The position numbers and the translations under genes were made by a program. DNA of 64,000 nucleotides from the IMG/VR virus record IMGVR_UViG_2061766007_000009, one strand, 5' to 3'. The notes under the pieces are model-generated. The model made no database searches, was not told the origin of the DNA, and saw only the letters and a program-made list of their open reading frames with translations. Positions 11,440-63,657 of this stretch are shown in pieces. Position 1 is the first letter of the stretch; every line of letters starts with the position of its first letter. This stretch comes from a virus (lineage: Duplodnaviria > Caudoviricetes).

Positions 11440-11673
11440 ATGAAAACCATAATACTCACAGAATCACAGTTTGAGCGTTTGTGCGAGTCCGAAGCCGTTG
11501 AGTTCCTTGGTGGTGATACAAAAGAATTTAACCCCAGCGAGGTAAGCACAACCACAATCGTCACCAATCAAGATGGCGACGAGGAGTATGGGGACGACGT
11601 TTTCACTGATGATATTAGCAAATTCCTTACACACCAAGTATTTGGCAGTTGCGACGGTTTTTGCAGAAGATAA
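11440..11673 (+). CDS. Small putative head-internal protein
   Basis: N-terminus MKTIILTESQFERLCES. Confidence 0.65.
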   Translation: MKTIILTESQFERLCESEAVEFLGGDTKEFNPSEVSTTTIVTNQDGDEEYGDDVFTDDISKFLTHQVFGSCDGFCRR

Positions 11674-11685
11674 AAACAAGTTATT

Positions 11686-12189
11686 ATGCCACTGGTTATA
11701 TCTGAAGATAAAACATTAAACAAGAAACGGTTTCATCTGGGGGCACCTCTCAAGAAACACCTAAAAGACACTCTCGGAAAGTACCACGAGTACAGTTCCG
11801 AGAAGGGTTACAAGCGTCTCAACGCCTTGTTGTTTCCAGAGTACAATAAACGCTCAGAAGGAGACGACGGTGAGTCAATTTCATTTGGCGATGCAAAGAA
11901 AATACAAGCCGATATGAAAAAAATGAACCGTAGAAGTCTTGAATACGCCCTTAATGGCGGCGACAAGATGAAACGAGCCGTTGATGGGTTTATGTCAACA
12001 GTCAGAAACATCAACAAGGAAATTCAACCAGTAAAACCAGTAAAACCAAATGCGAAACAGTTGAAACCGCAGGGTGCTAATGACAATTCGCTTGAAGTGA
12101 ACAAGGATGGTCTCACCGTCCACGAGAATAAAATAAGAATAACGGAGTCACAATTGATTCGTTTAAAAAAACGATTCAAGTATTTATAA
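11686..12189 (+). CDS. Hypothetical basic protein, putative head-internal
   Basis: C-terminal KIRITESQLIRLKK resembles the N-terminus of 11440. Confidence 0.65.
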   Translation: MPLVISEDKTLNKKRFHLGAPLKKHLKDTLGKYHEYSSEKGYKRLNALLFPEYNKRSEGDDGESISFGDAKKIQADMKKMNRRSLEYALNGGDKMKRAVDGFMSTVRNINKEIQPVKPVKPNAKQLKPQGANDNSLEVNKDGLTVHENKIRITESQLIRLKKRFKYL

Positions 12190-12221
12190 TATAATAAATG
12201 TGATTAAAATTTATATAAGAT

Positions 12222-12623
12222 ATGGCAGAACAAAGCACAATTATTGATGGCCAAACCTGTCTTGAGCAGAGAGGTATGGAAGAACGTCACGTTGAGATTG
12301 CTAGAAGTGATTACAACATTGAGGACCAATACTCAGCAGCACACAAAGACGCGATGAGTGATGGCGACCCACAAGGTAAGGGCACCGGACACGGAGGTCA
12401 CACTGCTTTCCTCCCAGACTGTACCAAACCAGTTGGTCAAATCAACTACAGCAATTTTGATACCGCAAAAGGTGGTGGGTATTATGACATCAACGGTCGC
12501 AACGATATTGGTGGACGCTTGAAATCAATGGCCGCTTCGCTTTACAACGAGAACAACCAGTATGGTCTTGATTTGATTAACACCGAAGCAAACATAGCAG
12601 ACGGACAGACATTTGTATCATAA
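12222..12623 (+). CDS. Hypothetical late protein
   Basis: Clean ORF after TATTTAT at 12181; stop overlaps next start (TAATG). Confidence 0.65.
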   Translation: MAEQSTIIDGQTCLEQRGMEERHVEIARSDYNIEDQYSAAHKDAMSDGDPQGKGTGHGGHTAFLPDCTKPVGQINYSNFDTAKGGGYYDINGRNDIGGRLKSMAASLYNENNQYGLDLINTEANIADGQTFVS

Positions 12624-13609
12624 TGAGAAGGGCGTCTGACATATTCAAGAGACTGCTTCGAGAGTCAATGTACACCTATGGGAGTCCAGACCCCCAAACG
12701 GTGGCAGACGCTATTGCCAACAAGAACTATGTCCGAATCAGATATGATGACGAGGACTATGGTTCACGAATTGGCACAAAGAAGAATTCTCGTCTTATTA
12801 TGCCCGTTGCACTTGGCACCTCAAAGGCTGGGAATCCAGTCCTAAGAGCATTCCAGATAAACGGAGGCACAAGAAGAGGCATACCAAAGTGGAAACTTTT
12901 CAGACTTGATAGAATCAAGAACTGGGCAACAATGACCAATAAGCAGTTCCACCAGACACCAGATGAACTTGGATTTGACAATGCATTCCCCTTCAACAAA
13001 TATGGAGATAAAAGTATGAGAGGCGTTAACAAAATTGCCGATTTCTCGGATATAGACAATATGTCTCCGCTTGAAAGAGTACGTATGTTTGGTATGGATA
13101 GACTCAACGGTCCAGCCATTACCGCAAGAGGGCTTGACTCAATCCCAGACATGAGACAAAGAAGAAGAATGTCAGCATCTGGAATGTCAAGGGATGACAT
13201 TATGAGAAACATAGAAATATCCAAAGGCGAAGAGAGTGCGTTCGACGTTTGGGATAAGGCAGCCGCTGAAGCATCTAACGACAACAGCGGAGCAAGAGAC
13301 ACCGAGATGGTCAGGCGTCTTGGTCGTAGTGACAATACCAGAGGGTCTATCGGCGGTGAAGACTTTGAGGACCACAACGCCGATGAAAACGAATACTCTA
13401 AATTCTTCAACGGCGAAGAGTTGTCAGACGAGGAAGTGGAGGCTCGCACCAAAGTCAACGATTTTGGTGATGAATACTACGAAGATGAAGTCCCAGACGA
13501 GATGTCAGGCGACAACGACATATCAAACAACAATGATATGCCAAACGATAACGACTTTGATGAAGATGATTTTTTCGCCAAAGACGAAGATGGAGATAAT
13601 TTTAAATAA
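12623..13609 (+). CDS. WYL-domain protein with acidic C-terminal tail
   Basis: AIANKNYVRIRY..RLIMPVALG..LRAFQ..WKLFRLDRIKNW matches the WYL pattern; no HTH seen. Confidence 0.8.
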   Translation: MRRASDIFKRLLRESMYTYGSPDPQTVADAIANKNYVRIRYDDEDYGSRIGTKKNSRLIMPVALGTSKAGNPVLRAFQINGGTRRGIPKWKLFRLDRIKNWATMTNKQFHQTPDELGFDNAFPFNKYGDKSMRGVNKIADFSDIDNMSPLERVRMFGMDRLNGPAITARGLDSIPDMRQRRRMSASGMSRDDIMRNIEISKGEESAFDVWDKAAAEASNDNSGARDTEMVRRLGRSDNTRGSIGGEDFEDHNADENEYSKFFNGEELSDEEVEARTKVNDFGDEYYEDEVPDEMSGDNDISNNNDMPNDNDFDEDDFFAKDEDGDNFK

Positions 13610-13627
13610 AAAAAAATAGTTACGACA

Positions 13628-14290
13628 ATGAATGATGCAGATTCTAGAAGAAGGAGCGTTGAGACAAATATGAACGCCGCAAAACGATTGATACAAATGG
13701 ATGCCAATGGTATGATTGACAAGGTGGCAAAGAGTGCGAAGAATAGTGGAAAAATGACATACGACGAAGAAGGTTTCGTCGTTTCCAATGTATCAGAATC
13801 GTCACAACCAGTGCAACAATATGCACCGCAACAAGAGCAATTACCAATGGCAAGTGTGGCGAGACAGAACGTTCAATCCAGAATTCCGTCTGTCATACTT
13901 GAATCAATGACAAACAATCCGATAGACACATCAATACTTAACGGAGGAATGGGCGGAAACGGTTCAATCCTTGACCAGATGAATGTAACCGATATAATTC
14001 AAGAGAATTCTGGTAGACTAATGGGAACAGAACCCCAACCATCTAAAACACAGTTACGAGAAGTCGGCAATGAGCCTATGGGAGGTGTAGACTATGAGCG
14101 AATCAATCAAATGATTGAGGAAAACGTTAGAAAATACACCAAGAGTCTTTATAAGAGTCTCCTTAAAGAAGAAAAATCAAAAGGACTCAATATTAAAGCA
14201 TTGAGACTGGGTGATACCTTTTCATTCATCACAGAGAATGGAGACTTGTACGAGGCGACCCTCACGTTTAAAAGAAATATTACAAAATGA
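13628..14290 (+). CDS. Hypothetical protein, putative head-associated
   Basis: Clean ORF with several (I/L)xE sites; followed by terminator. Confidence 0.65.
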   Translation: MNDADSRRRSVETNMNAAKRLIQMDANGMIDKVAKSAKNSGKMTYDEEGFVVSNVSESSQPVQQYAPQQEQLPMASVARQNVQSRIPSVILESMTNNPIDTSILNGGMGGNGSILDQMNVTDIIQENSGRLMGTEPQPSKTQLREVGNEPMGGVDYERINQMIEENVRKYTKSLYKSLLKEEKSKGLNIKALRLGDTFSFITENGDLYEATLTFKRNITK

Positions 14291-14302
14291 AGTAAATCAC
14301 AC

Positions 14303-16360: not shown

Positions 16361-16363
16361 AAT

Positions 16364-29152: not shown

Positions 29153-29737
29153 ATGAGCAATAGTATTATATATTCAGACGAATTCAAACGCTGGTTCGGT
29201 GATTGGGAGAATGACCCCCAACACTCGAGCAAGGTCGTTGACGAGGAGGGAAGACCTATGATGATGTATCACGGTGACGCCAAAAAGGGCGAACTGGTAT
29301 TTCGTCGGGATATGTTCTTTTCCCCCAACAAGGACTACGCTGGGCGGTACACGAAAGGCACTGGTGAGGTGAGGGATTACTACCTCAATATCAGACACCC
29401 ATTCGACCTTCGCAATAAGAGAGACTGGTACATATTCAAAGAGTTCAGAAACGGTCACGACCCTTGCACCAAGCCAGGTGAACCAATGGACTGGGCGGAA
29501 TATGAATACGAAGACCTCCAAGATTATCTTGAAGAGAATTATCCGGGTGAGTATGATGGTGTCATCATGAATGAAGGTGGCGACGGCGGATACGAACACC
29601 AAGTCATCGAGAGAGGACTAAGTTACGTGCCGTTTAGGGAAGACCAGATAAAACCAGTGCCCAATGACTTAGACGAGATTGTTGAGAATATCGTCCAAAA
29701 AATAAGATTCAGATACACTAAAACAAGGCTGTTTTGA
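29153..29737 (+). CDS. Stand-alone ART-PolyVal-like ADP-ribosyltransferase domain protein
   Basis: FKRWFGDW..SKVVDEEGRP..YHG..FFS....A..Y..YLNIRHP..YDGVI..YVPF..QIK. Confidence 0.7.
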   Translation: MSNSIIYSDEFKRWFGDWENDPQHSSKVVDEEGRPMMMYHGDAKKGELVFRRDMFFSPNKDYAGRYTKGTGEVRDYYLNIRHPFDLRNKRDWYIFKEFRNGHDPCTKPGEPMDWAEYEYEDLQDYLEENYPGEYDGVIMNEGGDGGYEHQVIERGLSYVPFREDQIKPVPNDLDEIVENIVQKIRFRYTKTRLF

Positions 29738-30666: not shown

Positions 30667-30693
30667 AAACGGAGGTTTTAAACCTCCGTTTTT
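30667..30693. terminator. Bidirectional terminator
   Basis: AAAACGGAGG-ttttaaa-CCTCCGTTTT between convergent genes. Confidence 0.8.
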
Positions 30694-48020: not shown

Positions 48021-50042
48021 TTATTTGCATAGTTTGTGCATAAGGTCAAGGGATTGTAACATACCCTTGTCTTGATAAATTTGTGTCTCGTTGAGTTTAC
48101 GGCTACCAAGTACTCCGTACTGGCGACCCTCGTTGAGAGCCAGACCGCCCTTACGCTTCAACTCGCGTGAGATTGATTCGTAGAGACGTTTTGAGTCTTT
48201 AATACTGTTTACTTCGTTTCCGAAACGGCTGATAATCTCCTTCTTCTCGTCGAATGTTGTTGCATTCTCGCTCAGAAGTTTGATAATCTGACCAAGGTTT
48301 ACGTTAGTAAGTGCTGCCTCTTGAAGAGAACCCTTGAAACGCAGAAGCGCCTTCTTGAGTTGCTTGTTCTCACGATAGATGCGACGGATTGACTCGTCAA
48401 CCCCTTCACCCTTGCGCTTGCGACCGTGGTATCTTCCACCCTTGGATGCACTACCAATTGTATCTTCGTAAGCATCCTCATATGGATTGTTCCTTAAGTA
48501 GGTCTTTGCGGTTGAGTGTGCTTGCACCTTACCGAAGGTGTGACCGCCCTCTTCGAAGCCGAAATCATCCTCTTCACTGTAAAGACCACCACATTCTTCT
48601 GTGGGTTCTCCGTCACCAAGAATTTCGCTATCATCGAAATCTACGGGATAGTCTTCACCCTCTTCTTTACCTCTTCTGAAGGCTTCCAACTCTTCTTCAT
48701 CTTCTGGGCTTCCTACATATTCGTTACCACCGAGAAGTTCACGGAGTTCATCTTCGCTTGGAATGTCGCCGCCGAAGTCGTCATATTCACCAAATTCTCT
48801 GATAAGACCTTCATTGAAGGGTTGGTCAGCACTCTTTTGACCTTTATATCCGGACCAAGGTTTGCTTTTACCTTTTGGTACACCTCTGTCCCAATCGTTG
48901 ACATTGTTGCCTGGCTCATCCATACCTGGAGAGGTCATAACATCGTCTTTCTGATAGTTGTCAGTATAGCCGAGATTATCATCCTCATTCAGATAAATTT
49001 CAAAAATTTTAGATTCGTTTTTCATTTTTTTGTGTTTCTTTTTGTTTTCATCATCTTCCTCATCGTCGCCGAATTCCTCTTCATCATCGACAAAGAAGTT
49101 GTTATCTGGGTTCATTGGGTTTGGTTTGTCCAAGCCGTCAAAAAACTTGTCGACCAAATTCTTTGCCTTATCAAGACCATTTTTCATAAAGTCTGAAAGC
49201 ACACCCTCATTGATGTCGTTGTTCTTGTCATCATCACCGTTCTCGTTGTTTTCATCATCATCTTCTTCGTCATCGGGAACGAGATATTCAACTTCGTCTT
49301 CTTCGTCATCATCAGAACCACCTTCTGGTTCATCCAATTCCACCTCAATTTCGGTGTCATCGTCATCATCACCGCCAAGGTCGCCCATAAGGTCGTCCTC
49401 CACGTCAGACAGTTCGTCATCAACATAAGAATTGAGAGAGTCATCTGAGAACTCATCGCCATCTTCCCCAGCCTTTTCAGCGTCCATTGTATCAAGGTCG
49501 ATAATGTACTCTGTGCCAGTTTCGTTGTCTTTAACATTGATGTGGCTATCGTCATCTTTTGTGACAACAACCTTGTCATCATCGCCTAACATATTGTAGG
49601 CGTTTACGATTTCATCGTCTTCCGCGTTGGTGAAGTCATACTCTCCGTCGGACACTTTATATTTGCTGAATTGAGCCCATTTACCGCCCTTGCCGTCTTT
49701 ACCAGACTTAAACGATACGTGACCTCTACCATCTTCGTCTTCGAAGTCTGCCTCGAAATCATCATCGTCGTCGTCATCCTTGGCCTTCCTAGCGTCTTTC
49801 GATTTGGCACCAAAATCAGAAACATCTACGTCCTCATCGTCAGTATCTTCCACTTCATCTTCGACGTCATCATCCTTCCCGCTTTCTTCAGCAAGAAGTT
49901 CTCTGTACGTCTTGCGAACTGATTCGTCAAGGAGGTCCTTAACTGCATCGCTCGCATTTTCTTTAAGAGTTGTGGCAAGACTGTCGAACTCCAATAAGGA
50001 GTCCTGAACATATTTGCTTACATTTTTTTTACTCTTCTTCAT
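48021..50042 (-). CDS. Prohead core/scaffold protein (gp22-like), highly acidic
   Basis: Lies between protease and MCP; D/E-rich; C-terminal coiled coil NVNLG..TFDEKKEII.RF..K.LYE; many (I/L)xE sites. Confidence 0.8.
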   Translation of the reverse strand: MKKSKKNVSKYVQDSLLEFDSLATTLKENASDAVKDLLDESVRKTYRELLAEESGKDDDVEDEVEDTDDEDVDVSDFGAKSKDARKAKDDDDDDDFEADFEDEDGRGHVSFKSGKDGKGGKWAQFSKYKVSDGEYDFTNAEDDEIVNAYNMLGDDDKVVVTKDDDSHINVKDNETGTEYIIDLDTMDAEKAGEDGDEFSDDSLNSYVDDELSDVEDDLMGDLGGDDDDDTEIEVELDEPEGGSDDDEEDEVEYLVPDDEEDDDENNENGDDDKNNDINEGVLSDFMKNGLDKAKNLVDKFFDGLDKPNPMNPDNNFFVDDEEEFGDDEEDDENKKKHKKMKNESKIFEIYLNEDDNLGYTDNYQKDDVMTSPGMDEPGNNVNDWDRGVPKGKSKPWSGYKGQKSADQPFNEGLIREFGEYDDFGGDIPSEDELRELLGGNEYVGSPEDEEELEAFRRGKEEGEDYPVDFDDSEILGDGEPTEECGGLYSEEDDFGFEEGGHTFGKVQAHSTAKTYLRNNPYEDAYEDTIGSASKGGRYHGRKRKGEGVDESIRRIYRENKQLKKALLRFKGSLQEAALTNVNLGQIIKLLSENATTFDEKKEIISRFGNEVNSIKDSKRLYESISRELKRKGGLALNEGRQYGVLGSRKLNETQIYQDKGMLQSLDLMHKLCK

Positions 50043-50113: not shown

Positions 50114-50824
50114 TCAAAGTAGACCTTTGATTTTACTTATTTTCTCATTAAGACTGTTTTTGTGTGAAGTTGTCTGGTCGCTTTCAATGTATGGTCGCAA
50201 CTCCTCTTGACTTCCGCCCAGCCATGCATTTGGAGTACTTGGGTCGGACACAAGGTCCCAGCATATCAATTCGAAGTCATCCCCCACAATATATTGACCG
50301 AGTTTCTGTTCAACACTTCCCACGCCACGTGATGAAACACCAATCTTGTATCCGTTCAAGAGGAGGTTAGCGGCGGTGTCTCCAAGTGTGGAGCAGATTC
50401 CACTACGTCTGTAACCCTCACTGATGTTGAGTTCCATTTTCCCAACAAGGGTGTGACCCTCCCAGTGAAGTTCAATTATGTTGTGGGAAATCCTACCAAG
50501 GTCGATTGTTGATTCGCTTGGGTGATTGCATTCCCCATATGCTCTATGCTCATCAATCTTCTGCTGGTATTCCGCCACTTGTCTCTTGAGTACGTTCTCT
50601 GGATATATTCTTCCGTTTGCGTTTTTGATGTCGAACTTTTGGAACACTGCGTCAACAATGAAGGGGTTTGGAACTCTCCACCCGTCGCCATTGTTGTAAG
50701 CCTCGTATATCTTCTTATTATTCGGTGTGTCTGAAAGACAGATGTGTCCGTCATTCTCAATAAGAAGACCAGTTCCAGTTGTATTTTTCTTTATCTCTTT
50801 TAATTCAGTTCTTTCAGAATTCAT
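50114..50824 (-). CDS. Prohead core protease (T4 gp21-like)
   Basis: NANGRIYP, GECNHP, SHNI, IGVSSRGVGS, WDLVSDPSTPNAW. Confidence 0.93.
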   Translation of the reverse strand: MNSERTELKEIKKNTTGTGLLIENDGHICLSDTPNNKKIYEAYNNGDGWRVPNPFIVDAVFQKFDIKNANGRIYPENVLKRQVAEYQQKIDEHRAYGECNHPSESTIDLGRISHNIIELHWEGHTLVGKMELNISEGYRRSGICSTLGDTAANLLLNGYKIGVSSRGVGSVEQKLGQYIVGDDFELICWDLVSDPSTPNAWLGGSQEELRPYIESDQTTSHKNSLNEKISKIKGLL

Positions 50825-53629: not shown

Positions 53630-55696
53630 TTAATCTTTAATAAATTTATCAAGTTGATTAATCATTTCCGAGAATTCCTCATTGATAAACTCTGGTGTGT
53701 AGAGTTCTGGTTTTTTGTTTGGAATTTGATTCTTCTCGTCCCTTCTCTCGGAAAGACGCTTCATAAAACTTTCAAATATATTCTCATTATTCTTATTTCT
53801 CAATTCAGTCAAAAGCGGTTTGCTTCTGTCAACCGACTCCATTGGTGGCATTCCGGGAGGAAGTCCGGGTGGCATTCCGGGAGGAGGTCCACCTGGCCCG
53901 CCGAGGCCACCAGGTCCACCTGGTCCACCTGGTCCGCCTTCTGGAGGTTCTGGCATATCTTTATCGCCTTCTGGGGCACCGATTTCGCCAAGGTCTGGGA
54001 TGCCTCCGCCGCCACCGCCGATTCCAGAACCAAAGTCTCCACCTTCACCATTGTTGTTGGCGTCGTCCTCGCTGTATTTTGCTCCTGGTTCGCCATAGAT
54101 TCTATCAACAGTGTCAAACAAACCAGTCTTCTTGATTATCTGGTTGGTCTTCTGAAGTTCTTCGGTGAGTGCCTTTTCAAGTCTAATCTCCTCAAAGTTC
54201 TCTTTTATCTCATTGTCCGACCACTTCATAATTTCCTTCAACGCTCTCGTCATTGACATCATTGGCAAACCACCGCCTGGGTCTGATACTGCATCTCGAA
54301 TGGTTGATACCTTCTTCTGCAAAGTCTCAATCTCAAGTTGTTCTGCTTGAGTCGATGGGTTGTTCATTGAAAGATTGAAGTTTGTCAACTCATCTTGGAA
54401 GCCAAGAAGATAAAGGTGAATTGAAGCAATCTTGGTTAACTCCATAAGAAACGCTTGCTGAATTCTGTTTACAGTTCTTGTAAATCTTACATCCATAAGT
54501 GCAAGGTTTTTCCCCTCTCCTTGTGCTTCCTCAAAGTTAAGGAATGAACTTGGAACCCTCAACGCCGCACAAACCTTGTTATGAACGTACTTGATATCGT
54601 CCATTACAGTCTGGTTGTTGTTGGCGGCCAAAGTCTCCACTGGGCTTGGAGCACTCATATCTCTGACTGGAATAAAGATGTCGTTGTCTACTGAAAGGAT
54701 GTTCTTCCTCAAATCAACTTGACCAGTCATTGGGTCAATAATTGGCGTTCTTTTGAAGTTGTTCGCAATCTCTTGTACATACGCTTGAACATCAGCGTCA
54801 TCAATAGCACCGACAAAAATCTTGTACACACGCCTTTCTACCGACCTTTCAAGGCGATAGATAAGCATCATATCCTCCATCAGCGAAAGCATTCTCCAAT
54901 GCCTTCTGGCATTGTTGAGGGCAGAGCATCCGTATGGGAGATAGAGAGAATTGGTCAAAAGTCTGAAATGTCCCACTTGCCAGTTACGGAATGGGATTTG
55001 ACTGTTATTCTCTCCGACCCACACAAACTTTGTCGATAAATCACTCTCGTTGTTCTCAGTCGCTGGATTTACTGTAAGACTCAGTCCAGACCCATATGGG
55101 TTCTTGATTCCGTTCTCAAGTCTTTCAACATCAAACACCGGAAGTTGCTTCCACCCAGTAATTCCCATCTTGTTATCAATATTGAGCAACATAAACTGAT
55201 TGCCATACTTGCACATTGCTCTAATAACCATAGGGGCAGTTACTTGAATGTCGAGTCGGTTCACAAATAAATCTTCCAAAATACTTTTAATTCTGTCAGA
55301 TTTTGAATACACATTTATGATTTGACCCTTTGAATTGGGGATGGTAGCCTCTTCTGCAAAGATATCAAGTGCGGCACCAATCTCTGGAAACGAATCCATA
55401 AGGTCGGCGTCACGATACATCAACTTGATATTGCTGAGTCCAGCAAAAGCAGTAACCGACAAGTCCACGTTGGCTTTGACCCACCTATTCTGCAAATACT
55501 TGTTCTGTTGCAGTTCGAGTTTGGTCTTCTCGTAGTCTTGCTTATTTGTTGAACGGTAAATGACCTTGTCATCGTTCGAGATGTTGTAGGTGTTACTGTG
55601 GACCAATGGTTGCCCATATGGGTCCTTCCAGTTACCATTGAACGTGCGGTCAAGGTTTTGGAATACCGTTTTTAATCTATTTGGTTTGTCTGGCAT
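53630..55696 (-). CDS. Portal protein (T4 gp20-like) with Pro/Gly-rich C-terminal tail
   Basis: MD.FPEIGAALDI.AEE, R.MCKYG, W..L.LMEDMMLIYR..R..ERRVYKI.VG, DIFIPVR, AL.VP..FL, D.RF.RTV.RIQ. Confidence 0.93.
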   Translation of the reverse strand: MPDKPNRLKTVFQNLDRTFNGNWKDPYGQPLVHSNTYNISNDDKVIYRSTNKQDYEKTKLELQQNKYLQNRWVKANVDLSVTAFAGLSNIKLMYRDADLMDSFPEIGAALDIFAEEATIPNSKGQIINVYSKSDRIKSILEDLFVNRLDIQVTAPMVIRAMCKYGNQFMLLNIDNKMGITGWKQLPVFDVERLENGIKNPYGSGLSLTVNPATENNESDLSTKFVWVGENNSQIPFRNWQVGHFRLLTNSLYLPYGCSALNNARRHWRMLSLMEDMMLIYRLERSVERRVYKIFVGAIDDADVQAYVQEIANNFKRTPIIDPMTGQVDLRKNILSVDNDIFIPVRDMSAPSPVETLAANNNQTVMDDIKYVHNKVCAALRVPSSFLNFEEAQGEGKNLALMDVRFTRTVNRIQQAFLMELTKIASIHLYLLGFQDELTNFNLSMNNPSTQAEQLEIETLQKKVSTIRDAVSDPGGGLPMMSMTRALKEIMKWSDNEIKENFEEIRLEKALTEELQKTNQIIKKTGLFDTVDRIYGEPGAKYSEDDANNNGEGGDFGSGIGGGGGGIPDLGEIGAPEGDKDMPEPPEGGPGGPGGPGGLGGPGGPPPGMPPGLPPGMPPMESVDRSKPLLTELRNKNNENIFESFMKRLSERRDEKNQIPNKKPELYTPEFINEEFSEMINQLDKFIKD

Positions 55697-55702: not shown

Positions 55703-56575
55703 TTATAATATATTTCTTTTCAAATAATTGTCAATATTTTTGCGAGCAATCTCGTTAATCATCATCCACGATGGAAAAGGCAATCGACCAGCGTTCACCG
55801 CCTGTGCTGGTGCTGGTGTTTCTGGTTTTGGTGTAAAAAGCACCTTAAACAAGGTCGAAACCAAATCATTTGAGTCGCCATCACTGTCTGGTGCGTTGTC
55901 TTGCACTGGTTGGGGTGTTTCTTGGGTGGGTTGAGGCACCTCTCGACTGGGCTGTGGCGTTGGTGCTGGTGTTGGTTGTTGCTGTTGTTGCTGACTACTT
56001 GGAGCCACTTCCTTACCATCGTAAGTGTAACTTTTCAGACGATTCATCCACCCCTTTATGAATTTTCTTTGCGATGGATTGTTTGACACAATACCATTAA
56101 AATGACTTTCTCTTGCGTGCCAAATCTTATTGAAAAGGTCCTCTTGTGGTTGCCAGCCGTTAATCTTAGCCAACATTTCGTCAGTCATCTTCGTCGATGG
56201 ATTGAGACCAAGCACAGCAGACACCTTCTTCATAGCAGTACCTGGTCCAGACCCCCACGCCCAGTCAACGATTATTTCCGCTATTGACTGGTTATTTATT
56301 TCATCAGCACGACAATGGTCCCAGAATTTTCTTAACACAAATGTAAAGTCATCTTTGGTGAGAGCCTTTATGTCTTCTGGTGTTATTTTACCATCACCAT
56401 TTTTATCAAAGTTTTTTGCACCTTTTTTATAATAACCAGTTGCAGTCCCGATGGTCACACCCATATTGGTAGCACCGCCACGGTCAACCGGGTCGTTTGC
56501 GTATCCACCCTCCCACTTGAGGATTTTTGGTGCGAGGAGGTTTATGTCCGCCTCTGTGAGTCTGTGTCTTCTCAT
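55703..56575 (-). CDS. GH108 lysozyme with PG_binding_3 domain and Pro/Gln-rich tail
   Basis: EGGYANDPVDRGGATNMGVT, DWAWGSG, QRKFIKGWMNRL; N-terminal HRLTEA. Confidence 0.9.
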   Translation of the reverse strand: MRRHRLTEADINLLAPKILKWEGGYANDPVDRGGATNMGVTIGTATGYYKKGAKNFDKNGDGKITPEDIKALTKDDFTFVLRKFWDHCRADEINNQSIAEIIVDWAWGSGPGTAMKKVSAVLGLNPSTKMTDEMLAKINGWQPQEDLFNKIWHARESHFNGIVSNNPSQRKFIKGWMNRLKSYTYDGKEVAPSSQQQQQQPTPAPTPQPSREVPQPTQETPQPVQDNAPDSDGDSNDLVSTLFKVLFTPKPETPAPAQAVNAGRLPFPSWMMINEIARKNIDNYLKRNIL

Positions 56576-56577: not shown

Positions 56578-58473
56578 TTAATAAGTTCCAGCAAAGAGCC
56601 ACATATATGCACCCTTTGGTGTGTTGTCTTTTCCGTATTTACTCATTATCTTATCATTATAGAATGGAAGCCCATTCTTGGGGTCCATAAGGAGTTCTTC
56701 CCCCCTATTTCTTTTATCAGCATAAAGTCCGCAACTGCTGACTGTTGTATATGCCTTGAGGATTGCCGCATCCTTGCTCTTTGTTGCTTCAAGTTTATTG
56801 AATGAATATTGCATCACAAACAAACCCATCGCAAGACAAGTAATACTGTCATCGTGACTACCACTCATATGGTCCATTCGTCCAGTCTCCCCCTTGAAAA
56901 TCCAAGTTTCCAATTCGTTAATCACTCGTATCGAACGAACCTTGAACTCATTTGTTCGTAGCATTCCAGCAAATGAGGACAGCATTGGAAATCTGTTTCC
57001 TTGCATATGGAAGCCAGGCATTCTGTCGTGTGGGTCTGGATTAAACGCTGAATATGAGTCTTGAATTGTATATTTTTTCAGACTTGTGTCATCATAAAAT
57101 ATATTCTTGTACCCAAGACTTATCAATGTCAAAAGACAAGCATCGCCGACACCACCGGTCGCATCAACTACGACAAATGCGTTATTATACATTCTTGCGT
57201 AATTGAATATGAGTTGTCCAATTTCGTCACCTAGTTTCTTTCCCAGATACTCCATAACTTGCTCAACGATAGGCTTTCCGTCTTCGTCTCTACCGTCAAC
57301 GTCAATCACTTCAATTGCTGTGCGGTCAGCGGCATCGCCCCTTGAAGGGTCACAAGCAAGTATGTATCTGTGTCCGTCGATTGGCGGTTTCCAGAACCAC
57401 GTCTCTGGGACCAGTGGGTCTCTCAGTGTTGTAATCGGGTCCCTCACGTTCACAACATTCTGCATCTCAATCACTTCCGCTGGAACAACGTTGTTGGCAG
57501 AACCCATAAACGATACGTCCAACTCTTGGGTGATTTTCATACGGTCGTTGTTAAACTGCTTACACATCAATGTATACCAAGGAGATGAAGGTGTCCAACC
57601 CTCCCTTTCGAGTTTACGCCATCTTTCTTCGTCATAATTGATTGTGCCAGTCTCGTCAAGAGTCTCTTCCACAATCCACTCAACGTCACCCTTCTCTTCG
57701 TTTTTCCTATACCACTTGAGGTTTTTGTTATATCTTGGGTCTTGGAACCATTTAAACTCAACTGCGGTATAGTTATTCTCTTTCGCAATCGCTTGCTTAT
57801 ACGTTTTATAGTACAACTCATCTTTACCATTTGGTGTTGAAACCATAATGATTTTTGCGTTTGGTACAGAAGCAGTTGCGGCGACGGCAGATGAATAAGC
57901 GGCAACTCCGTCTTCGATAAACGCCGCCTCATCAAAAATCAGAATAGACACAGCAGAGATACCACGAGCGGCATTCGCTTTACCAGCCCTCGCATACACC
58001 TTGCAACCATTGAACAACTCAATCATTGCCTTGCTGTTCTTTTTGAATATATCTTTTTTGTTCTTCTCCGAATTGGGGTCGTCCGAATAATAATCCTCCC
58101 CCCAGTACCAACGTGGTATCTGGTTGAGAAAGTCCCTAATCTTGTCCATCAACTCGTATGCTTGCTCAAGTTTGTTGGCGATACAAAGAACTGTCTCTGG
58201 AGAATCTTTGGATGCGAAGGCAATCTGTGCGGCAATCCAAGCGGTACTAATGGTCGTGATACCAGCCTGGCGGTGCTTGATTGCAATACTCGCCTTGTTG
58301 TTTGCAAGACTCTGTAAGAACACCTTCTGTCTGGGAAAGAGTTTGAATGGCACTTGCTTTCCAGCACCAGCATCCATCGTAGACAGATAGTGCTCGATGA
58401 AATAAATCCTAGACTTGTCTGAATAGGATTTAGCATATTCGGTCGCTATGTGTTCGTAATCTAGCATAATCAA
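56578..58473 (-). CDS. Terminase large subunit (T4 gp17-like)
   Basis: KHRQAGITT, LIFDEAAFI, VSTPNG, QELDVSF, ACDPSRG, HDDSI. Confidence 0.95.
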   Translation of the reverse strand: MIMLDYEHIATEYAKSYSDKSRIYFIEHYLSTMDAGAGKQVPFKLFPRQKVFLQSLANNKASIAIKHRQAGITTISTAWIAAQIAFASKDSPETVLCIANKLEQAYELMDKIRDFLNQIPRWYWGEDYYSDDPNSEKNKKDIFKKNSKAMIELFNGCKVYARAGKANAARGISAVSILIFDEAAFIEDGVAAYSSAVAATASVPNAKIIMVSTPNGKDELYYKTYKQAIAKENNYTAVEFKWFQDPRYNKNLKWYRKNEEKGDVEWIVEETLDETGTINYDEERWRKLEREGWTPSSPWYTLMCKQFNNDRMKITQELDVSFMGSANNVVPAEVIEMQNVVNVRDPITTLRDPLVPETWFWKPPIDGHRYILACDPSRGDAADRTAIEVIDVDGRDEDGKPIVEQVMEYLGKKLGDEIGQLIFNYARMYNNAFVVVDATGGVGDACLLTLISLGYKNIFYDDTSLKKYTIQDSYSAFNPDPHDRMPGFHMQGNRFPMLSSFAGMLRTNEFKVRSIRVINELETWIFKGETGRMDHMSGSHDDSITCLAMGLFVMQYSFNKLEATKSKDAAILKAYTTVSSCGLYADKRNRGEELLMDPKNGLPFYNDKIMSKYGKDNTPKGAYMWLFAGTY

Positions 58474-59603
58474 TAAAAATATACCTCATCTGGTTCAACA
58501 GAATCGGACAGTATTGTCATCTTCGAGTTTTTTATTTTCATCTTATCGACAAACTTATCGTATTGCATATCATGTTCAATGGATGAAACCATATCAGATA
58601 TTACGTCTTTTATCTCTGGGTCTCCGGAAAACACAGAACGCATAAATTCGTTAAATTCCCCTGACTCCATCTTGCATATGTCCGTAAACAGATATGGCAC
58701 AACATCAGAATGTTCCACATTGTCTGCCAACATATCCCACATAGGAACACCAAGTCTCATATCCCAAGGCTCGGCTGCGATAAAGTCAGCAGCCCTTACA
58801 ATCGCCATTGCCATCATTCTGTCACTCGGAAGCCCGTGTGACGAGAACAACTCAAACAGTCCTCTGAATGTATCGTGGAGAAGTCCGGGAAAGGTTAACG
58901 CTTGGACATAGATGCTTGTTCTATTCCCATTCTTTCCCAACGTAACTTCAACATAAGAGTCTTCTTTTGGTTTGTCGTCACTAATTTCTTCTTCCTCAAC
59001 AAACAATAGAAAATCTTTTAATGCTTGAATTTCAGCATATAGTCTTGGCAATTCCTTGTTTATTCTGTATATTTCTTTGTCATACAATCTGAAGTCGGTC
59101 CCATAAAAATAAGATGCACCCATAATCAACGCATCGACTACTCTTCGTTGTAGTACAATCTCATTGGAATTTATCATATCAAGCACATCACTAAATGAAT
59201 ACACTCCATCTGGTTGACTTCCTTCTGGGGTTATCCTCATATCACTCTGGGGAACAATTTCATCAACAAGTTTGCAATCAAGGTTGATTGTATTGGCTGG
59301 TATGTCAAAAACCTTTAACACTGAATTTTTGCAAATCCTCTCAAGTTGTTTTCTAACTGGACGCTCAAGTTCGGCGCACTCACTCATCTTCTCGGAAAGA
59401 AGTGTGTGTGCATCGTCGATGTTATCCACCCTTATGCCAAGCGAGGATAAGTTCGACACCACCTCGTCAAAACGGTCTTGCACAATGGACGCATCAAAGT
59501 CATCACTGGGGAATACTGGATTCGCTCCCAACGATGTCGTATGTGTCGCCAATGCCTTTGCAATGAATGGTGGCAACTGGTCATATGATTCAAATAAACG
59601 CAT
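58470..59603 (-). CDS. Hypothetical protein translationally coupled to terminase
   Basis: ATGA overlap; MRLFES start; FP.LLHD..RGLFEL...HGLP and AEPWDMRLG motifs. Confidence 0.65.
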   Translation of the reverse strand: MRLFESYDQLPPFIAKALATHTTSLGANPVFPSDDFDASIVQDRFDEVVSNLSSLGIRVDNIDDAHTLLSEKMSECAELERPVRKQLERICKNSVLKVFDIPANTINLDCKLVDEIVPQSDMRITPEGSQPDGVYSFSDVLDMINSNEIVLQRRVVDALIMGASYFYGTDFRLYDKEIYRINKELPRLYAEIQALKDFLLFVEEEEISDDKPKEDSYVEVTLGKNGNRTSIYVQALTFPGLLHDTFRGLFELFSSHGLPSDRMMAMAIVRAADFIAAEPWDMRLGVPMWDMLADNVEHSDVVPYLFTDICKMESGEFNEFMRSVFSGDPEIKDVISDMVSSIEHDMQYDKFVDKMKIKNSKMTILSDSVEPDEVYFY

Positions 59604-60062: not shown

Positions 60063-60779
60063 TTAGAAATCACTAACAAATGGGTTTGTGCGTTTGACTT
60101 TCTTGTTCGTTATCTTTCGCTCTGGGCGTTTTGTATGCCGTTCTTTATCTCCAAGCAATTCCCCAACAATTTCGTTGATTACATCATCATACGATTCCAT
60201 AACTGGTCTCGGATTTTTGTGAGCCATCATCGGTTGTGGGGCTGGTGCTGGTGCTGGTGCTGGTGGCATTCCGCCACCCATCGGAGGCATTCCGCCACCC
60301 ATAGGAGGCATTCCGCCGTCCATACCCATATTTGGGTCGACATTTCCAGCCTTGTTCAGTGCCTTAACAACATCCTTCTTGTCGTTTGCGTCAAGCGTAT
60401 CTCCAAGGGCACTCGCAAGCATATTCAATGCCCACTTTGCGTCTGGTGAGGAGAAGGGGTCCATCTGGTCTGCTTTTGCTTGACTTGCGAGTTGTGAAAT
60501 CTCGCCAGTCTTCTTGTAGATTGATTGCTTCGGCGTTCCTTCATCTTCTTCACCGCCCATCATCGAAGGGTCTGGTGCTGGCATTGGGGGCTGTGGTGCA
60601 CCGCCCATCATCGAAGGGTCTGGTGCTGGCATTGGAGGCTGTGGTGCGACACCCATCATCGAAGGGTCTGGTGCTGGCATTGGAGGTTGTGGCAGTGCCG
60701 CCTCGTTAAATAAACGGACGGAAGGGTTCGGACCGAAGCCAAACCCTCCCGTCTTATGAAAATTTCTATTTTCGTTTAT
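60063..60779 (-). CDS. Pro/Met/Gly-rich ORF, probably the -1 frameshift extension of 60776..62299
   Basis: Frame is open 33 codons upstream of ATG 60680, back into the 10-A run. Confidence 0.65.
   Translation of the reverse strand: MNENRNFHKTGGFGFGPNPSVRLFNEAALPQPPMPAPDPSMMGVAPQPPMPAPDPSMMGGAPQPPMPAPDPSMMGGEEDEGTPKQSIYKKTGEISQLASQAKADQMDPFSSPDAKWALNMLASALGDTLDANDKKDVVKALNKAGNVDPNMGMDGGMPPMGGGMPPMGGGMPPAPAPAPAPQPMMAHKNPRPVMESYDDVINEIVGELLGDKERHTKRPERKITNKKVKRTNPFVSDF
60556..60692. repeat. 48-bp coding repeat x3 (PQPPMPAPDPSMMG..)
   Basis: CCCATCATCGAAGGGTCTGGTGCTGGCATTGG at 60556, 60604, 60652. Confidence 0.9.
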
Positions 60780-60788
60780 TTTTTTTTT
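60717..60788 (-). promoter_or_regulatory. Candidate -1 frameshift cassette: A10 slippery run, TAA, 15-bp hairpin
   Basis: TTA AAA AAA AAA TAA then GACGGGAGGGTTTGG-CTTCGGT-CCGAACCCTTCCGTC. Confidence 0.6.
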
Positions 60789-62299
60789 AAGTTCCTGATG
60801 ATTGATTCTGCAATTGCATTCTCAAGTTCATCTGGGTCTACGAGGAATGGTGCACCGTCACCGATTTGCTCGCCGTAAGGCTGTTCGCTGTAAACCGACT
60901 CATCATTCATATCGTAGTAACCTGGGAACTCATTGTAGCGTGTAGATGGTAATGACATAACCCTCTTCTGCCAAGCAGGATGCTTCCCGAAGTAGTCAAG
61001 TCTATCCTCATTCAACATACGACGAAAATCTCTTGATTCATACACACGACCTTCGTTTGTTTGGTTGTACAAATCACTATCATTGAAATCATCACCGTTT
61101 GCATTGCCCATCATACCTGGGTTGCCCATAGGAGGCATACCGCCGCCGATAGGAGGCATTCCACCACCCATAGGGGGCATTCCGCCGCCGATAGGTGGCA
61201 TTCCACCACCCATAGGAGGCATTCCGCCGCCCATAGGAGGCATATCACCCATCATATCATCTTGCATACCACCGTTATCGGGAACGCCAAGCACAGATGC
61301 GATACGCTGGAGAGTATCCTCCATATCATCAATCTTATTGATAAGACCGCCCTCGCTGTCAATGTTTGCGTCCATATCGGTAATAGCCTCATTTACACGC
61401 TTTGTGAATGGGTCGCCGTAACCTATGTCGTTTGTACCTGGAGTTGGTTCATACTGGTCCCAGAATTGTCTGTGAAGGGCTTTTTTGCCTTTACCTCTAC
61501 CTTCTCCAACAACACCGTTACGCATTCTCTTACGATTGGTGAAACGTGGCTCGGTGAATGGGTTGTTAGGACCAATTTCGGTTCCGTGACTGTCATCAAT
61601 ATAATCGTAGTCGTCGTTCCAACCTAGAACCTCACTGTCACTACGTCCCTCGAACATATCATCTGGAAGGTCGGCCTTTTTCCAAGCCTTGTCCTTCTTG
61701 AAGCCATGTCCCTTGCGGACTCCATCCTTATACTCATTGCGACCGATGTTATCACGCATCTTGTCGATGTTCATATCATCGCAACGACAAACTTCACCAT
61801 CTTTACAGAATGGGTCACCACAGCAACCACACTCTTGTTTCTTGTTCTCATTGATGCGACCCACGTTGTACATAATCTGACGTTCGCGAGCAATTTCACG
61901 CTTCATCTGGTTGGTCGACTCAACCGTCAGTTGACGCCTCTTGTCGGGGTTCCAAGATTCCACCATAATCTTCTTGCCAGCGGCATTAGCCTCTTTCAGA
62001 GAAGCCATCTTAAGGTCAAATTGCTTAAGGGCATTGGCATAACTAGAGTATTCGTTGTTCTTACGATTAACGAATCCACCAATATAGTCAAAGTTCTCTT
62101 TAATTGGCTTTACGTTCTGGGGTGCTGATTTGATATAATACTTGGTACCTTCACGGACGATTCCGTAAAGTTTGCCGTCAGCGCCGACACGTGAATATTC
62201 GACATCTGAGAATGGGGTATTTTTCTTACCTTCACTCAAGCCGTAAGACATCATTTCCTTGATACGACCGAGTTCTTTTTTCACATTCTTTTTGCTCAT
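60776..62299 (-). CDS. Putative head-core protein with GGMPPM repeats
   Basis: ELGRIKEMMSY, YGIVREGTKYYIK..YIGG..YSSYA.ALK; repeated IG...PF units; many (I/L/V)xE sites; ends LKKK. Confidence 0.75.
   Translation of the reverse strand: MSKKNVKKELGRIKEMMSYGLSEGKKNTPFSDVEYSRVGADGKLYGIVREGTKYYIKSAPQNVKPIKENFDYIGGFVNRKNNEYSSYANALKQFDLKMASLKEANAAGKKIMVESWNPDKRRQLTVESTNQMKREIARERQIMYNVGRINENKKQECGCCGDPFCKDGEVCRCDDMNIDKMRDNIGRNEYKDGVRKGHGFKKDKAWKKADLPDDMFEGRSDSEVLGWNDDYDYIDDSHGTEIGPNNPFTEPRFTNRKRMRNGVVGEGRGKGKKALHRQFWDQYEPTPGTNDIGYGDPFTKRVNEAITDMDANIDSEGGLINKIDDMEDTLQRIASVLGVPDNGGMQDDMMGDMPPMGGGMPPMGGGMPPIGGGMPPMGGGMPPIGGGMPPMGNPGMMGNANGDDFNDSDLYNQTNEGRVYESRDFRRMLNEDRLDYFGKHPAWQKRVMSLPSTRYNEFPGYYDMNDESVYSEQPYGEQIGDGAPFLVDPDELENAIAESIIRNLKKK
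61126..61245. repeat. 21-bp coding repeat (GGMPP[MI]G) x5-6
   Basis: ATAGGAGGCAT(T/A)CC(G/A)CC units; the same unit recurs at about 60262-60320. Confidence 0.85.
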
Positions 62300-62395
62300 A
62301 TTAAAATATTTTAATTTAGTCTTATTCTTTTTAGAATCAGGTTTATTTTACAATAAATAGATTACACAAGAAAAAAATATTCATTTTTATTCTCA

Positions 62396-62740
62396 TTAAT
62401 AATCATAATATATATTTTGCATCGCTTGTTGAGAATACGGCCTAAAAACACTGGCTGGTTTTACGTATATCATACCGTATTGTTTTCCGTTCTTAATGAG
62501 CGTACACAACATATAAGAAACTCCGAGAGCATTTGACAGCATAGAGTCCTCCAGACATAAATATACCTTTCCGTTCTCCATACTTATCATATATTTCCCG
62601 TTTTTGGTGAGAAGTGCCTCAAGATAGTCATTCTCCCTCTCCCATTGTTTGGCATAGGGATTCCTGTCTGGGTCACCGTCCGCAACGACTTCCTCAAACA
62701 ATCTTTTTCTGGCATCCTCATTTATCTTAATCTTCATCAC
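62396..62740 (-). CDS. Small putative head-internal protein
   Basis: MKIKINEDARKRLFEE N-terminus. Confidence 0.65.
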   Translation of the reverse strand: MMKIKINEDARKRLFEEVVADGDPDRNPYAKQWERENDYLEALLTKNGKYMISMENGKVYLCLEDSMLSNALGVSYMLCTLIKNGKQYGMIYVKPASVFRPYSQQAMQNIYYDY

Positions 62741-63657
62741 TCAATCGTATTTAACACATCATATATTGCGTTCTTTAATTCTATGAGTTTCCCCATATAT
62801 TCAGTTCTACGCAAAACCTTGAACGCAAGGTTGCCGACACCCATCTCACCCTCAATCTCAAGACTCTTCTTTCGCATATTTTTTATCGCTTTGCGGAGTC
62901 TGCTTACTTTTTCGCCAATTTCCTCAATTTGATGTGCATCATCAGTTTCGTCAAACTCGTCCCAGAGGTCGTCAATCCTTGTCATAATCTTGGCTGCCAG
63001 ATGCTTGATGTCGTATTTGTTCAAACCAATACTCTCAATCTGGTTTGGAGACGGTTCCTTTATCCATTCATTGCTGGTGAGTGAATATATTGCATTTGAA
63101 GCATTTTCCTCGCCAATATCTTGAACGTAAATCTCTATGGGGAAGCCGTGAATCTTCAACGATTCTCCGTGGGTGTCGTTCCACATAGTCTTCTTTGCGT
63201 CAAAATACTCTTTTACAAAGTCCGTCTTTTCATCAACCTTGCTGAAATCAACCATAAGGTGCATATCGATGTCTGAGAATTCAGACCAATTATAATTACA
63301 AATTGACCCCATCAAGAGAATATCCTCTGGTTTTACCCAGTTTACGCCAACCTCTTGCCAGAAATCGTCAGCAATATCAAGAAGTCTGAGTCTGACCCTT
63401 GAATCAAGATTTCCGTCCTCGTCCCAGATATCAGCCATCCTTCCTTGTTTTCTAAACGAGGAAAGGTCCACTTCGCTATCCTCAACCTCGGACTCAAGAT
63501 TCTCCTCTAATTCACCGTCTGATACATGGTAATAAGGGAAACTTCCACCCTCACTACCAATCATAAACTTATCGGCTTCATAAGGCGGAATATCCTTCTT
63601 CTCTTGAAGCATCAGAGAGTAAAGGGAACTTGCTGGTATTCGTATTTTTTTACCCAT
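62737..63657 (-). CDS. Pol-beta superfamily nucleotidyltransferase
   Basis: LLMGSICNYNWSEFSDIDMHL (hGS..DhD) and PIEIYVQ third acidic residue; start MGKKIRI at 63657. Confidence 0.8.
   Translation of the reverse strand: MGKKIRIPASSLYSLMLQEKKDIPPYEADKFMIGSEGGSFPYYHVSDGELEENLESEVEDSEVDLSSFRKQGRMADIWDEDGNLDSRVRLRLLDIADDFWQEVGVNWVKPEDILLMGSICNYNWSEFSDIDMHLMVDFSKVDEKTDFVKEYFDAKKTMWNDTHGESLKIHGFPIEIYVQDIGEENASNAIYSLTSNEWIKEPSPNQIESIGLNKYDIKHLAAKIMTRIDDLWDEFDETDDAHQIEEIGEKVSRLRKAIKNMRKKSLEIEGEMGVGNLAFKVLRRTEYMGKLIELKNAIYDVLNTIE

Follow-up and report, generated by a model that had tools for sequence, protein, structure and literature searches.

A shared leader ending at (I/L/V)-x-E on unrelated proteins of a T4-type jumbo phage clade: a candidate capsid address and propeptide

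The internal proteins IPI, IPII and IPIII of phage T4, and its Alt protein, carry a short capsid-targeting sequence (CTS) that the gp21 prohead protease cuts off (Mullaney and Black 1996, as summarised in PMC9026906 and PMC5694885), and no processing takes place when the cleavage position of the CTS holds Asp (PMC9026906). Alt is cut at I-T-E-6 and at L-T-E-619, a C-terminal propeptide included, and the presence of multiple sites within a single propeptide is likewise already known (PMC5694885). In the phiKZ-like giant phages (201phi2-1, phiKZ and SPN3US) many head proteins are cut after Glu by a diverged gp21 homologue; their propeptides have several cleavage sites, paralogues can have identical N-terminal stretches, and a role in prohead targeting has been proposed for them (PMC5694885).

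The DNA analysed here is a stretch of 64,000 nucleotides (the window) of the viral record IMGVR_UViG_2061766007_000009, which belongs to a jumbo phage with a T4-type head, in a clade known from metagenomes only. It encodes a Gp23 capsid protein, a Gp20 portal and an S77 protease of the gp21 family, in a T4-like order of portal, small proteins, protease, scaffold candidate and capsid (Table 1). The protease has a conserved L-L-I-E/N site near its N-terminus, and T4 gp21 shows L-L-I-E at the equivalent position. The capsid protein has a predicted cleavage site, L-I-Y-E60/A61, which was already pointed out in a preliminary description of this DNA and is real: 22 relatives keep it, and in alignment it falls on the region where T4 gp24 and gp23 are cleaved. 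The scaffold candidate gave no match in family searches (Pfam and phrog); its alignment contains several conserved L-x-E sites, one of which, L-L-D-E/S-V, is similar to the centre of the leader described below. The preliminary description had also gathered short, similar tags from the ends of many unrelated open reading frames (ORFs) and had proposed that they represent one portable, protease-cut head tag, added to several enzymes. All of the tag strings that it quoted are present where it placed them, but do they form one set?

Table 1. Features of the window bearing on the leader and the head module (a slash stands before the residue that follows the Glu of a site).
Feature	Position	Strand	Remarks
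Palindromic promoter-like motif	11407..11424		Serves divergent genes 9445-11385 (-) and 11440 (+)
77-aa acidic protein, full N-terminal leader	11440..11673	+	Leader is residues 1 to ~17, with two L-x-E sites
167-aa protein, C-terminal leader copy	11686..12189	+	Residues 150-167, nt 12133-12186; no preceding Met
WYL-domain protein, short N-terminal L-R-E/S site only	12623..13609	+	WYL 22.2 bits (cut-off 21.8)
ART-PolyVal ADP-ribosyltransferase	29153..29737	+	Pfam 1.1e-13; N-terminal leader absent
348-aa protein	30692..31738	-	N-terminus is L-N-E plus second motif, ending L-F-E/A
Gp23-type major capsid protein	45951..47990	-	Pfam Gp23 1e-73
Scaffold candidate	48021..50042	-	Between protease and capsid genes, like T4 gene 22
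gp21-family prohead protease	50114..50824	-	Pfam Peptidase_S77 PF03420 2.3e-21; phrog_207
T4-type portal	53630..55696	-	Pfam Portal_T4 2.1e-82
GH108 muramidase	55703..56575	-	Pfam GH108 2.7e-20; mini-leader before catalytic domain
Conserved 377-aa protein adjoining TerL	58470..59603	-	Starts M-R-L-F-E/S
507-aa head-cluster protein	60776..62299	-	Different conserved N-terminal motif, also in orthologues
113-aa protein, leader-like N-terminus	62396..62737	-	I-N-E and L-F-E sites
Nucleotidyltransferase, degenerate leader	62737..63657	-	Weak Pfam palm-domain match; phrog_36119 3.5e-38

Among 80 related metagenomic loci, at least 45 mutually unrelated proteins begin with a common leader of about 27 residues, whose canonical pieces are, in order, M-N-K-K, L-I-R-L-T-E, S-D-L-H-R-I-V-K-E and S-V-N-R-I-L-K-E. 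Conservation breaks off at a Glu that follows (I/V/L)-(L/I)-x: in 45 cluster representatives the relative entropy is 1.3-4 bits per column through the last Glu and 0.2-0.8 bits immediately beyond it, and the three Glu positions of the leader hold Glu in 45, 33 and 36 of the 45 and Asp in none. When stop-to-stop ORFs in all six frames are considered, an ATG lies 3-7 codons upstream in 96 of 107 leader matches; the Met is not part of the leader model itself. Ninety-six tagged proteins fall into 47 body clusters without mutual BLAST similarity; the leader is present in more than 2,100 unnamed protein clusters, and five complete genomes of 312-412 kb have about 9-17 solid copies each (13-21 matches at E<=1). 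Some copies in the relatives are C-terminal, internal or between modules, and there are tandem arrays and mosaic or polyprotein-like ORFs with repeated leaders. The cargo consists mainly of small acidic proteins (median pI of the bodies 5.0) without known function rather than of recognisable enzymes, with a muramidase, nucleotidyltransferases and a NUDIX enzyme among the remainder. The leader was not found in Pfam, in GenBank phages or in the searchable literature.

How does this leader compare with the described systems? It shares with the T4 CTS the head type and protease family, its placement on unrelated proteins (enzymes included) and an (L/I)-x-E end with Glu at the predicted cleavage position, as is required in T4; like T4 Alt, the clade uses I-T-E and L-T-E tripeptides and both protein ends. 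Each of the eight complete leader-bearing genomes tested encodes a Peptidase_S77 protein, a co-occurrence that discriminates little, having been tested inside one clade only. Unlike the 10-20-residue CTS, the clade leader has three sites and many times the handful of carriers found in T4, its cargo is acidic where that of T4 is basic, and it occurs internally, C-terminally and in polyprotein-like ORFs, in a clade that is known here from sequence alone. When it was compared with the N-termini of T4 gp24, Alt, gp67, gp68 and gp21 only, the h-x-E site and a K/I/L-rich context were common to them, and there was no alignable homology. The phiKZ-like propeptides are similar in being processed after Glu at several sites, but their sites are (S/A/G)-x-E, they are often longer than 100 residues and they have no single shared leader, whereas the clade has a T4-type module with (I/L/V)-x-E sites. 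We judge it rather likely that the leader works on the T4 capsid-targeting principle, but at greater length and on far more proteins.

Several properties nonetheless count against an address that is cut off. Residues past the first leader Glu are conserved as strongly as those before it, the leader is 2-3 times as long as the T4 CTS and much more conserved (which could mean that it has a function of its own), the acidic cargo does not resemble the basic T4 internal proteins, and the leader genes are dispersed across the genome. The leader might instead be an uncleaved N-terminal module, such as a helix for oligomerisation or for binding a host or phage partner, retained in a diversifying multigene family. 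Conservation over all 27 residues fits such a module, as do the tiny, mostly acidic cargo and the predicted helicity of the leader (pLDDT 67-73 in structure prediction, as against >=90 for the bodies), and some stretches that related phages remove as propeptides do stay in the mature head proteins of giant phages (PMC5694885). A retained module would not lead one to expect that conservation stops exactly at the Glu of an (I/L/V)-x-E site, that three Glu positions never hold Asp, that the carriers have no detectable relationship and include C-terminal and between-module copies, or that the GH108 version (below) is cut down to just 8 residues ending in L-T-E. We therefore regard it as unlikely.

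Two further explanations are much less probable. The conserved 5' gene ends could act as nucleic acid, by signalling in translation or regulation or by offering sites at which cassettes are exchanged through recombination; the tandem arrays and the mosaic ORFs with repeated leaders would suit this, as would the polymorphism of the internal-protein loci of T-even phages. However, the fixed Leu, Ser, Thr, Val and Arg positions of the leader are each encoded by 4-6 different codons; because synonymous codons vary so freely, selection acts on the protein, and this largely refutes a nucleic-acid signal. C-terminal copies, moreover, cannot serve as initiation signals, and we give this explanation the least credence of all. 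Hardly more credible is a RiPP-like recognition sequence for a modifying enzyme such as a radical-SAM maturase. One leader on many unrelated small proteins is indeed the pattern expected of one enzyme with many substrates, but Radical_SAM (PF04055) is absent from two of five complete leader-bearing genomes, one of these two having the highest number of matches at E<=1 (21); in the others it occurs as a lone gene that lies far away from those with the leader, and bodies of 50-500 residues are not peptide-like.

The window proteins were scored with an 18-column matrix built from the relatives only, over about 19,000 positions. Three of the 12 best matches are N-terminal, a class that makes up about 2% of the positions. 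The top match is the C-terminus of the 11686 protein (27.1 bits, rank 1; 24 bits with the leader HMM), and the second is the N-terminus of the neighbouring 11440 protein (15.8 bits, rank 2; HMM 20.4 bits), whose leader is retained in the positional orthologue of relative G004. The third is the N-terminus of the GH108 muramidase, right behind the ATG at 56575 (12.7 bits, rank 3), with a mini-leader of 8 residues, M-R-R-H-R-L-T-E/A. This gene lies between the portal and terminase genes, its ATG 2 nt past the TerL stop. Its orthologues in three relatives have no N-terminal extension and occupy other genome positions, and a cut after L-T-E would give back the native N-terminal length. The absence of the tag from these orthologues makes it look like an addition: a small GH108 enzyme of the usual kind seems to have acquired the 8 residues at its front, an extension at its C-terminus and a location in the head cluster. 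Other phages also encapsidate cell-wall hydrolases, an example being T7 gp16, an internal core protein with a transglycosylase domain that is large and lacks a cleaved address. The parallel is a muramidase that travels in the head and is released to help breach the cell wall, the part that the tagged GH108 protein would play.

Shorter or degenerate versions occur on three more window proteins. The 62396 N-terminus scores 7.4 bits (rank 9 of about 19,000), and in G004 this protein is fused with the nucleotidyltransferase ORF. The nucleotidyltransferase itself has lost the first Glu site and retained an L-Q-E site; the orthologue in G004 is equally degenerate, and those in L039 and L061-L063 start with a clear leader. 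The 58470 protein has orthologues that begin with full leader variants, and its N-terminal Glu is invariant across 20 orthologues; its AF2 model (pLDDT 86, residues 1-5 disordered) gave no fold match in the PDB. Neither it nor the nucleotidyltransferase scores with the leader matrix, and for both the support comes from the orthologues only.

The other tags are of a different standing. The 30692 and 60776 proteins do share an N-terminal motif, as the preliminary description had it for the tags at 31738 and 62299, but it is a second motif, R-M-K-x-L-M-x-Y-G followed by x-E, and not the leader; the 60776 protein also has a leader-like C-terminal stretch at residue 491 (rank 4). The start string at 59603 and the GH108 C-terminal string found no support in the matrix scoring, and the ADP-ribosyltransferase C-terminus (residues 166-172, matrix ranks 12 and 6) is suggestive and not significant alone. 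What the WYL orthologues of five genomes have in common is just a short h-L-x-E-(S/G) site near residues 10-16, which the matrix of the second half of the leader does not recognise. The proposal that the tags could be read from bare (I/L)xE at protein termini turned out to be a weak argument. Enrichment of (I/L)xE within the first 30 residues is 1.85-fold (p = 9e-4), but the motifs E-x-(I/L) and (I/L)-x-(K/R) are also up there, about 1.4-fold and 1.5-fold, so the enrichment is mostly N-terminal helix composition, and (I/L)xE by itself is hardly enriched past it. It is accordingly quite probable that the WYL, ADP-ribosyltransferase, 59603 and GH108 C-terminal sites, and perhaps that of 62396, are chance matches from K/I/L/E-rich helical termini: the leader matrices give weak sites low or negative scores, and about a quarter of random N-termini would contain (I/L)xE. 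That the WYL site sits at one place in the five genomes argues against chance, as does the finding that two of the six best matches to the second-half matrix lie within the last 25 residues of proteins. About half of the originally proposed set, then, belongs to the shared leader. Among the enzymes said to have received a tag, the muramidase and the nucleotidyltransferase have support, the latter's family being tagged in several relatives, the WYL protein has a short site only, and the tag of the ADP-ribosyltransferase is unsupported.

Tagged genes and head genes also have a promoter-like motif in common, which counts for a head cargo. The motif, (A/G)TATTTAT, lies 22-53 nt upstream of the scaffold, protease, fibre-like and tagged genes, and 15 of its 20 occurrences are directly upstream of a start codon; it is found 26 nt before the 11440 gene, 22 nt before the 30692 gene and also upstream of the 60776 gene. 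In G004 it is present at five of eight tagged genes as against 37 of 387 others (Fisher p = 5e-4).

The core of the original proposal thus fits what is found in the clade, more closely than its own evidence could show, with a 27-residue leader that ends at (I/L/V)-x-E, an S77 protease and a common promoter-like motif, and its list of enzymes fits only in part. Judged by sequence, there is a reasonable probability that the clade uses the leader, mostly N-terminally and occasionally internally or C-terminally, as a capsid address and propeptide; the tagged proteins probably enter the capsid and lose the leader inside it. The predicted leader helix, which suits this reading too, would dock a protein on the scaffolding core during prohead assembly, the protease would cut after Glu at up to three (I/L/V)-x-E sites, and the cargo, thereby freed inside the shell, may exit with the DNA. 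The window would represent this system with full copies at the 11440 N-terminus and the 11686 C-terminus and shortened ones on GH108, the nucleotidyltransferase, 58470 and 62396. More tentatively, and with less than even confidence, the leader could be an address and cleavable joint that loads an exchangeable arsenal of about 10-20 proteins per genome, drawn from more than 2,000 clusters and in some cases made as polyproteins, to be delivered before gene expression.

If this is true, the leader is a sequence signature that would allow one to list which proteins uncultured T4-like jumbo phages eject. Most jumbo-phage genes lack a known function, and such an address label would tell, for thousands of unannotated proteins, both where they sit (the capsid interior) and when they reach the next host (first), and would flag candidate anti-defence or takeover factors of uncultured megaphages from rumen or gut. 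The leader could also be tried for loading foreign proteins into such capsids. Capsid targeting as in T4, so far a matter of a few T-even proteins, would prove to have been scaled up in another T4-like branch, with a longer leader, several cut sites, and placement at either protein end or between modules.

A loose pattern built from the two best end strings of the window matched 62 times in crude gene calls (longest ORF, first ATG) from the window and 80 related metagenomic loci, and 46 of these matches lie within the first 12 residues of the predicted protein. An HMM derived from the matches, start Met excluded, and run on six-frame stop-to-stop ORFs gave 107 matches of at least 8 bits, and for 96 of them an ATG lies 3-7 codons upstream. 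These 96 tagged proteins range from 49 to 529 residues (mostly 80-140), and their bodies form 47 clusters that show no BLAST similarity to one another (no match at 1e-3, the sense in which we call them unrelated); the loci are from related phages, and counts across them are not counts of independent events. With one representative per cluster (45 were alignable), relative entropy is 1.3-4 bits in every column from the Met to the Glu 19 residues past the Leu of L-T-E, and directly past this Glu it falls to 0.8 and then to 0.2-0.6. Because conservation drops right there, we take the leader to be ~27 residues long. It reads, in pieces, M-N-K-K, L-I-R-L-T-E, S-D-L-H-R-I-V-K-E and S-V-N-R-I-L-K-E, and has three (I/L/V)-x-E sites, the third forming its end; the three positions hold Glu in 45, 33 and 36 of the 45 representatives, respectively, and Asp in none. 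The leader exists, and is clearer among the relatives than in the window. At its Leu, Ser, Thr, Val and Arg positions, 4-6 different codons encode a residue that does not change, so selection is on the peptide and not on DNA or RNA, and a signal at the nucleic-acid level was rejected. The predicted structure of the commonest cargo family is helical at residues 10-29 (pLDDT 67-73) ahead of a body at 90 or more, and the leader might be a functional helix retained on the protein, a reading we hold to be improbable beside that of a leader ending at a putative head-protease site.

Among 5.8 billion database proteins, the first 40 residues match the leader at E≤1 in 1,324 clusters with lengths of 69-221 residues and in 801 with lengths of 203-2,000; none of these clusters has a functional name and hardly any a Pfam domain, NUDIX being one exception. 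Per-genome counts come from five complete relatives, of which the syntenic G004 stands in for the window phage: each gives 13-21 matches at E≤1 (roughly 9-17 are solid), on genes dispersed along the genome. That the leader is a maturase recognition sequence is not supported, and a Radical-SAM partner was rejected, Radical_SAM being missing from two of these five genomes, one of them the genome with the most leader matches at E≤1. A degenerate DNA pattern of the canonical leader matches at least 120 stretches of viral contigs, and the contig names listed carry largely the same metagenome numbers as the relatives of the window's protease. A tblastn search of the 27-residue consensus against 50,697 GenBank phage records gave no match at E≤1, a literature search with literal pieces of the leader gave nothing relevant, and Pfam and PHROGs searches with the tagged window proteins and ten tagged relatives found known enzyme domains only and no family covering the leader.

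The cargo bodies are mostly acidic (median pI 5.0). The largest tagged family in loci L001-L080 (23 members, ~124 residues) is extremely so, with 32% Asp+Glu and a pI of 4.1, and is reminiscent of gp67 and gp68, which are acidic core proteins in T4, or of DNA mimics; its gene usually adjoins the protease gene in the loci, and the window is without a member. In some relatives, single open frames run body, leader (with its own Met), body, leader, body, and one such frame encodes a NUDIX domain followed by two leader-body units. Of the 78 distinct leaders that the loci hold, 7 are internal; two leaders are present in 30 of 116 long database proteins. The multi-leader frames may be polyproteins of cargo that are cut at each leader, or else neighbouring genes with no stop between them.

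The preliminary description had proposed that (I/L)xE-type tags are shared by the ends of many unrelated window proteins. Over the first 30 residues of window proteins, (I/L)xE does show a 1.85-fold enrichment (p = 9e-4), but the patterns E-x-(I/L), (I/L)-x-x-E and (I/L)-x-(K/R) are likewise enriched (1.3-1.6-fold), so this generic argument is weak and the enrichment, although real, is mostly compositional. A leader matrix made from relatives only was scored over ~19,000 window positions. Two proposed tags take its first places, the 11686 protein C-terminus (27.1 bits) and the 11440 protein N-terminus (15.8 bits), and the GH108 protein N-terminus is third (12.7 bits); the N-terminus of the 62396 protein is ninth (7.4 bits). 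For the weak window tags, chance matches are the likelier explanation. The named enzyme domains are all present: GH108 (2.7e-20), ART-PolyVal (1.1e-13), a marginal WYL (22.2 bits against a cut-off of 21.8) and a nucleotidyltransferase with a weak palm-domain match (also phrog_36119).

The most probable start codon of the GH108 gene is the ATG 2 nt past the terminase stop, which gives eight extra N-terminal residues, the last three L-T-E. Its orthologues in three complete relatives are untagged, ~120 residues shorter and at other genome places, and begin at the helix preceding the catalytic E-G-G-Y; with a predicted cut after L-T-E, the N-terminal part of the window protein would be as long as theirs. 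The muramidase would thus be the best case for a tag added to an enzyme, at its N-terminus; the C-terminal string also proposed for it found no support, nor did the 59603 tag. The nucleotidyltransferase and the 58470 protein have no matrix score of their own, but their orthologues start with clear leader variants (M-K-T-I-Y-I-T-E-E-Q and M-K-K-I-Y-I-N-E-S types), and in the 58470 family all 20 aligned members keep the N-terminal Glu. The 58470 gene lies beside the large terminase gene, and its conserved product, for which a confident fold is predicted (pLDDT 86, pTM 0.87), may be a small terminase or neck protein; neither its family nor the commonest cargo family is given a function, because fold searches with both brought up nothing convincing in the PDB (Foldseek E of at least 0.18; VIA Z ≤5.3, helical pieces). 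WYL orthologues keep a short h-L-x-E-(S/G) site near residues 10-16 only, and since the second-half leader matrix is negative on WYL N-termini, WYL is not counted as a leader member. The tags proposed at 62299 and 31738 (60776 and 30692 proteins) do share an N-terminal motif, R-M-K-x-L-M-x-Y-G then x-E, kept among 60776 orthologues, but it is a different motif from the leader; a leader-like stretch at the 60776 C-terminus ranks fourth. The ART protein has no N-terminal leader, and its C-terminal likeness (ranks 6-12) is not significant alone, so its tag was not borne out.

Coordinates of features in the window and in related loci
Feature	Position (nt)	Strand	Source or remark
Gp23-type major capsid protein	45951-47990	minus	Pfam, PHROGs
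Scaffold candidate	48021-50042		
Prohead protease, Peptidase_S77 (T4 gp21 family)	50114-50824		Pfam, PHROGs
Endolysin-like amidase with peptidoglycan-binding domain	51779-52612	minus	phrog_1493, 2.7e-32
T4-type portal	53630-55696		Pfam, PHROGs
Large terminase	56578-58473		Pfam, PHROGs
58470 protein	58470-59603	minus	
Fibre-like protein, 1418 residues	3438-7694	minus	
Fibre-like protein	41528-43369		
Promoter-like motif (A/G)TATTTAT	11407-11424 and 19 further window sites		
Stretch collinear with G004 (L209-L224)	46-63723		nearly all of the window
Multi-leader frames in relatives	L019:5290-6276, L019:6298-6981, L070:3841-4476	minus	proteins P0158, P0197, P0229

The window has about 51 genes of a large phage, with portal, small proteins, protease, scaffold candidate and capsid gene in a T4-like order; this head module also contains the endolysin-like amidase gene, distinct from the tagged GH108 gene, with the portal-side genes to one side of it and the protease to the other. 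Protease relatives at 48-73% identity are carried by IMG/VR contigs of up to 412 kb, five of which are complete by CheckV (312-412 kb). G004 is 312 kb long, and the two syntenic phages differ widely in composition, with 30.7% G+C in G004 and ~42% in the window. A megablast search with the head module against GenBank phages gave no match, so none is close at the DNA level. The capsid protein (679 residues) is ~40% identical to homologues in an uncultured 484-kb phage, a Microcystis phage and Flavobacterium phages; its Gp23 profile match is split into two stretches and T4-like capsid proteins span only about half of it, which hints at a large insertion, a domain of about 300 residues. In the 1418-residue protein a 36-residue repeat rich in Glu, Ala and Arg occurs at least seven times (residues 559-775, spacing 36 residues), the 41528-43369 protein has short I-T-E-D-K-I-A-D-type repeats, and both look like fibre proteins.

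Of the head proteins in which xE sites were previously pointed out, the capsid protein, the protease and the scaffold candidate have conserved ones. The predicted capsid site L-I-Y-E60↓A61 is conserved in 22 relatives (variants L-I-S-E and L-L-Y-E) and aligns with the region of T4 gp24 (L-L-R-E↓S) and gp23 (F-L-T-E↓A) that gp21 cuts (PMC9026906). The same paper notes the N-terminal site of gp21 as LIE-9. The window protease has a conserved L-L-I-E↓N at its start, where T4 gp21 has L-L-I-E↓T, and the scaffold candidate has several conserved L-x-E sites, of which L-L-D-E↓S-V resembles the leader centre. An S77 protease is encoded in all eight complete leader-bearing genomes tested, a co-occurrence that discriminates little because all eight belong to one clade. 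At 22-53 nt upstream, the promoter-like motif precedes the genes of the scaffold and the protease, 52634 and the fibre-like genes; 11440, 30692, the pair 59603-58470 and 60776 have it ahead of them too. A single palindromic copy is shared by two genes that diverge from it. Read on the coding strand, the motif is the reverse complement of the T4 late-promoter box. In G004 it precedes 5 of 8 tagged genes versus 37 of 387 others (Fisher p = 5e-4).

In T4, a CTS of 10-20 residues on IPI-III and Alt targets the scaffolding core and is removed by gp21; its first ten residues are enough to load foreign proteins, and Asp at the cleavage position prevents processing (PMC9026906). Alt is cut at I-T-E-6 and L-T-E-619, and thus has propeptides at both ends, and in giant phages a propeptide can have several cleavage sites, and there are paralogues that begin with identical stretches (PMC5694885). 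The leader described here shares the logic and the tripeptides of the CTS, but it is two to three times longer, far more conserved and on an order of magnitude more proteins, it has mostly acidic bodies as cargo, and some copies stand within long ORFs. An earlier proposal sees in the CTS the T4-like phages' means to take in varied proteins (PMC9026906). We file the leader as the CTS principle in a new form, not as a member by homology.
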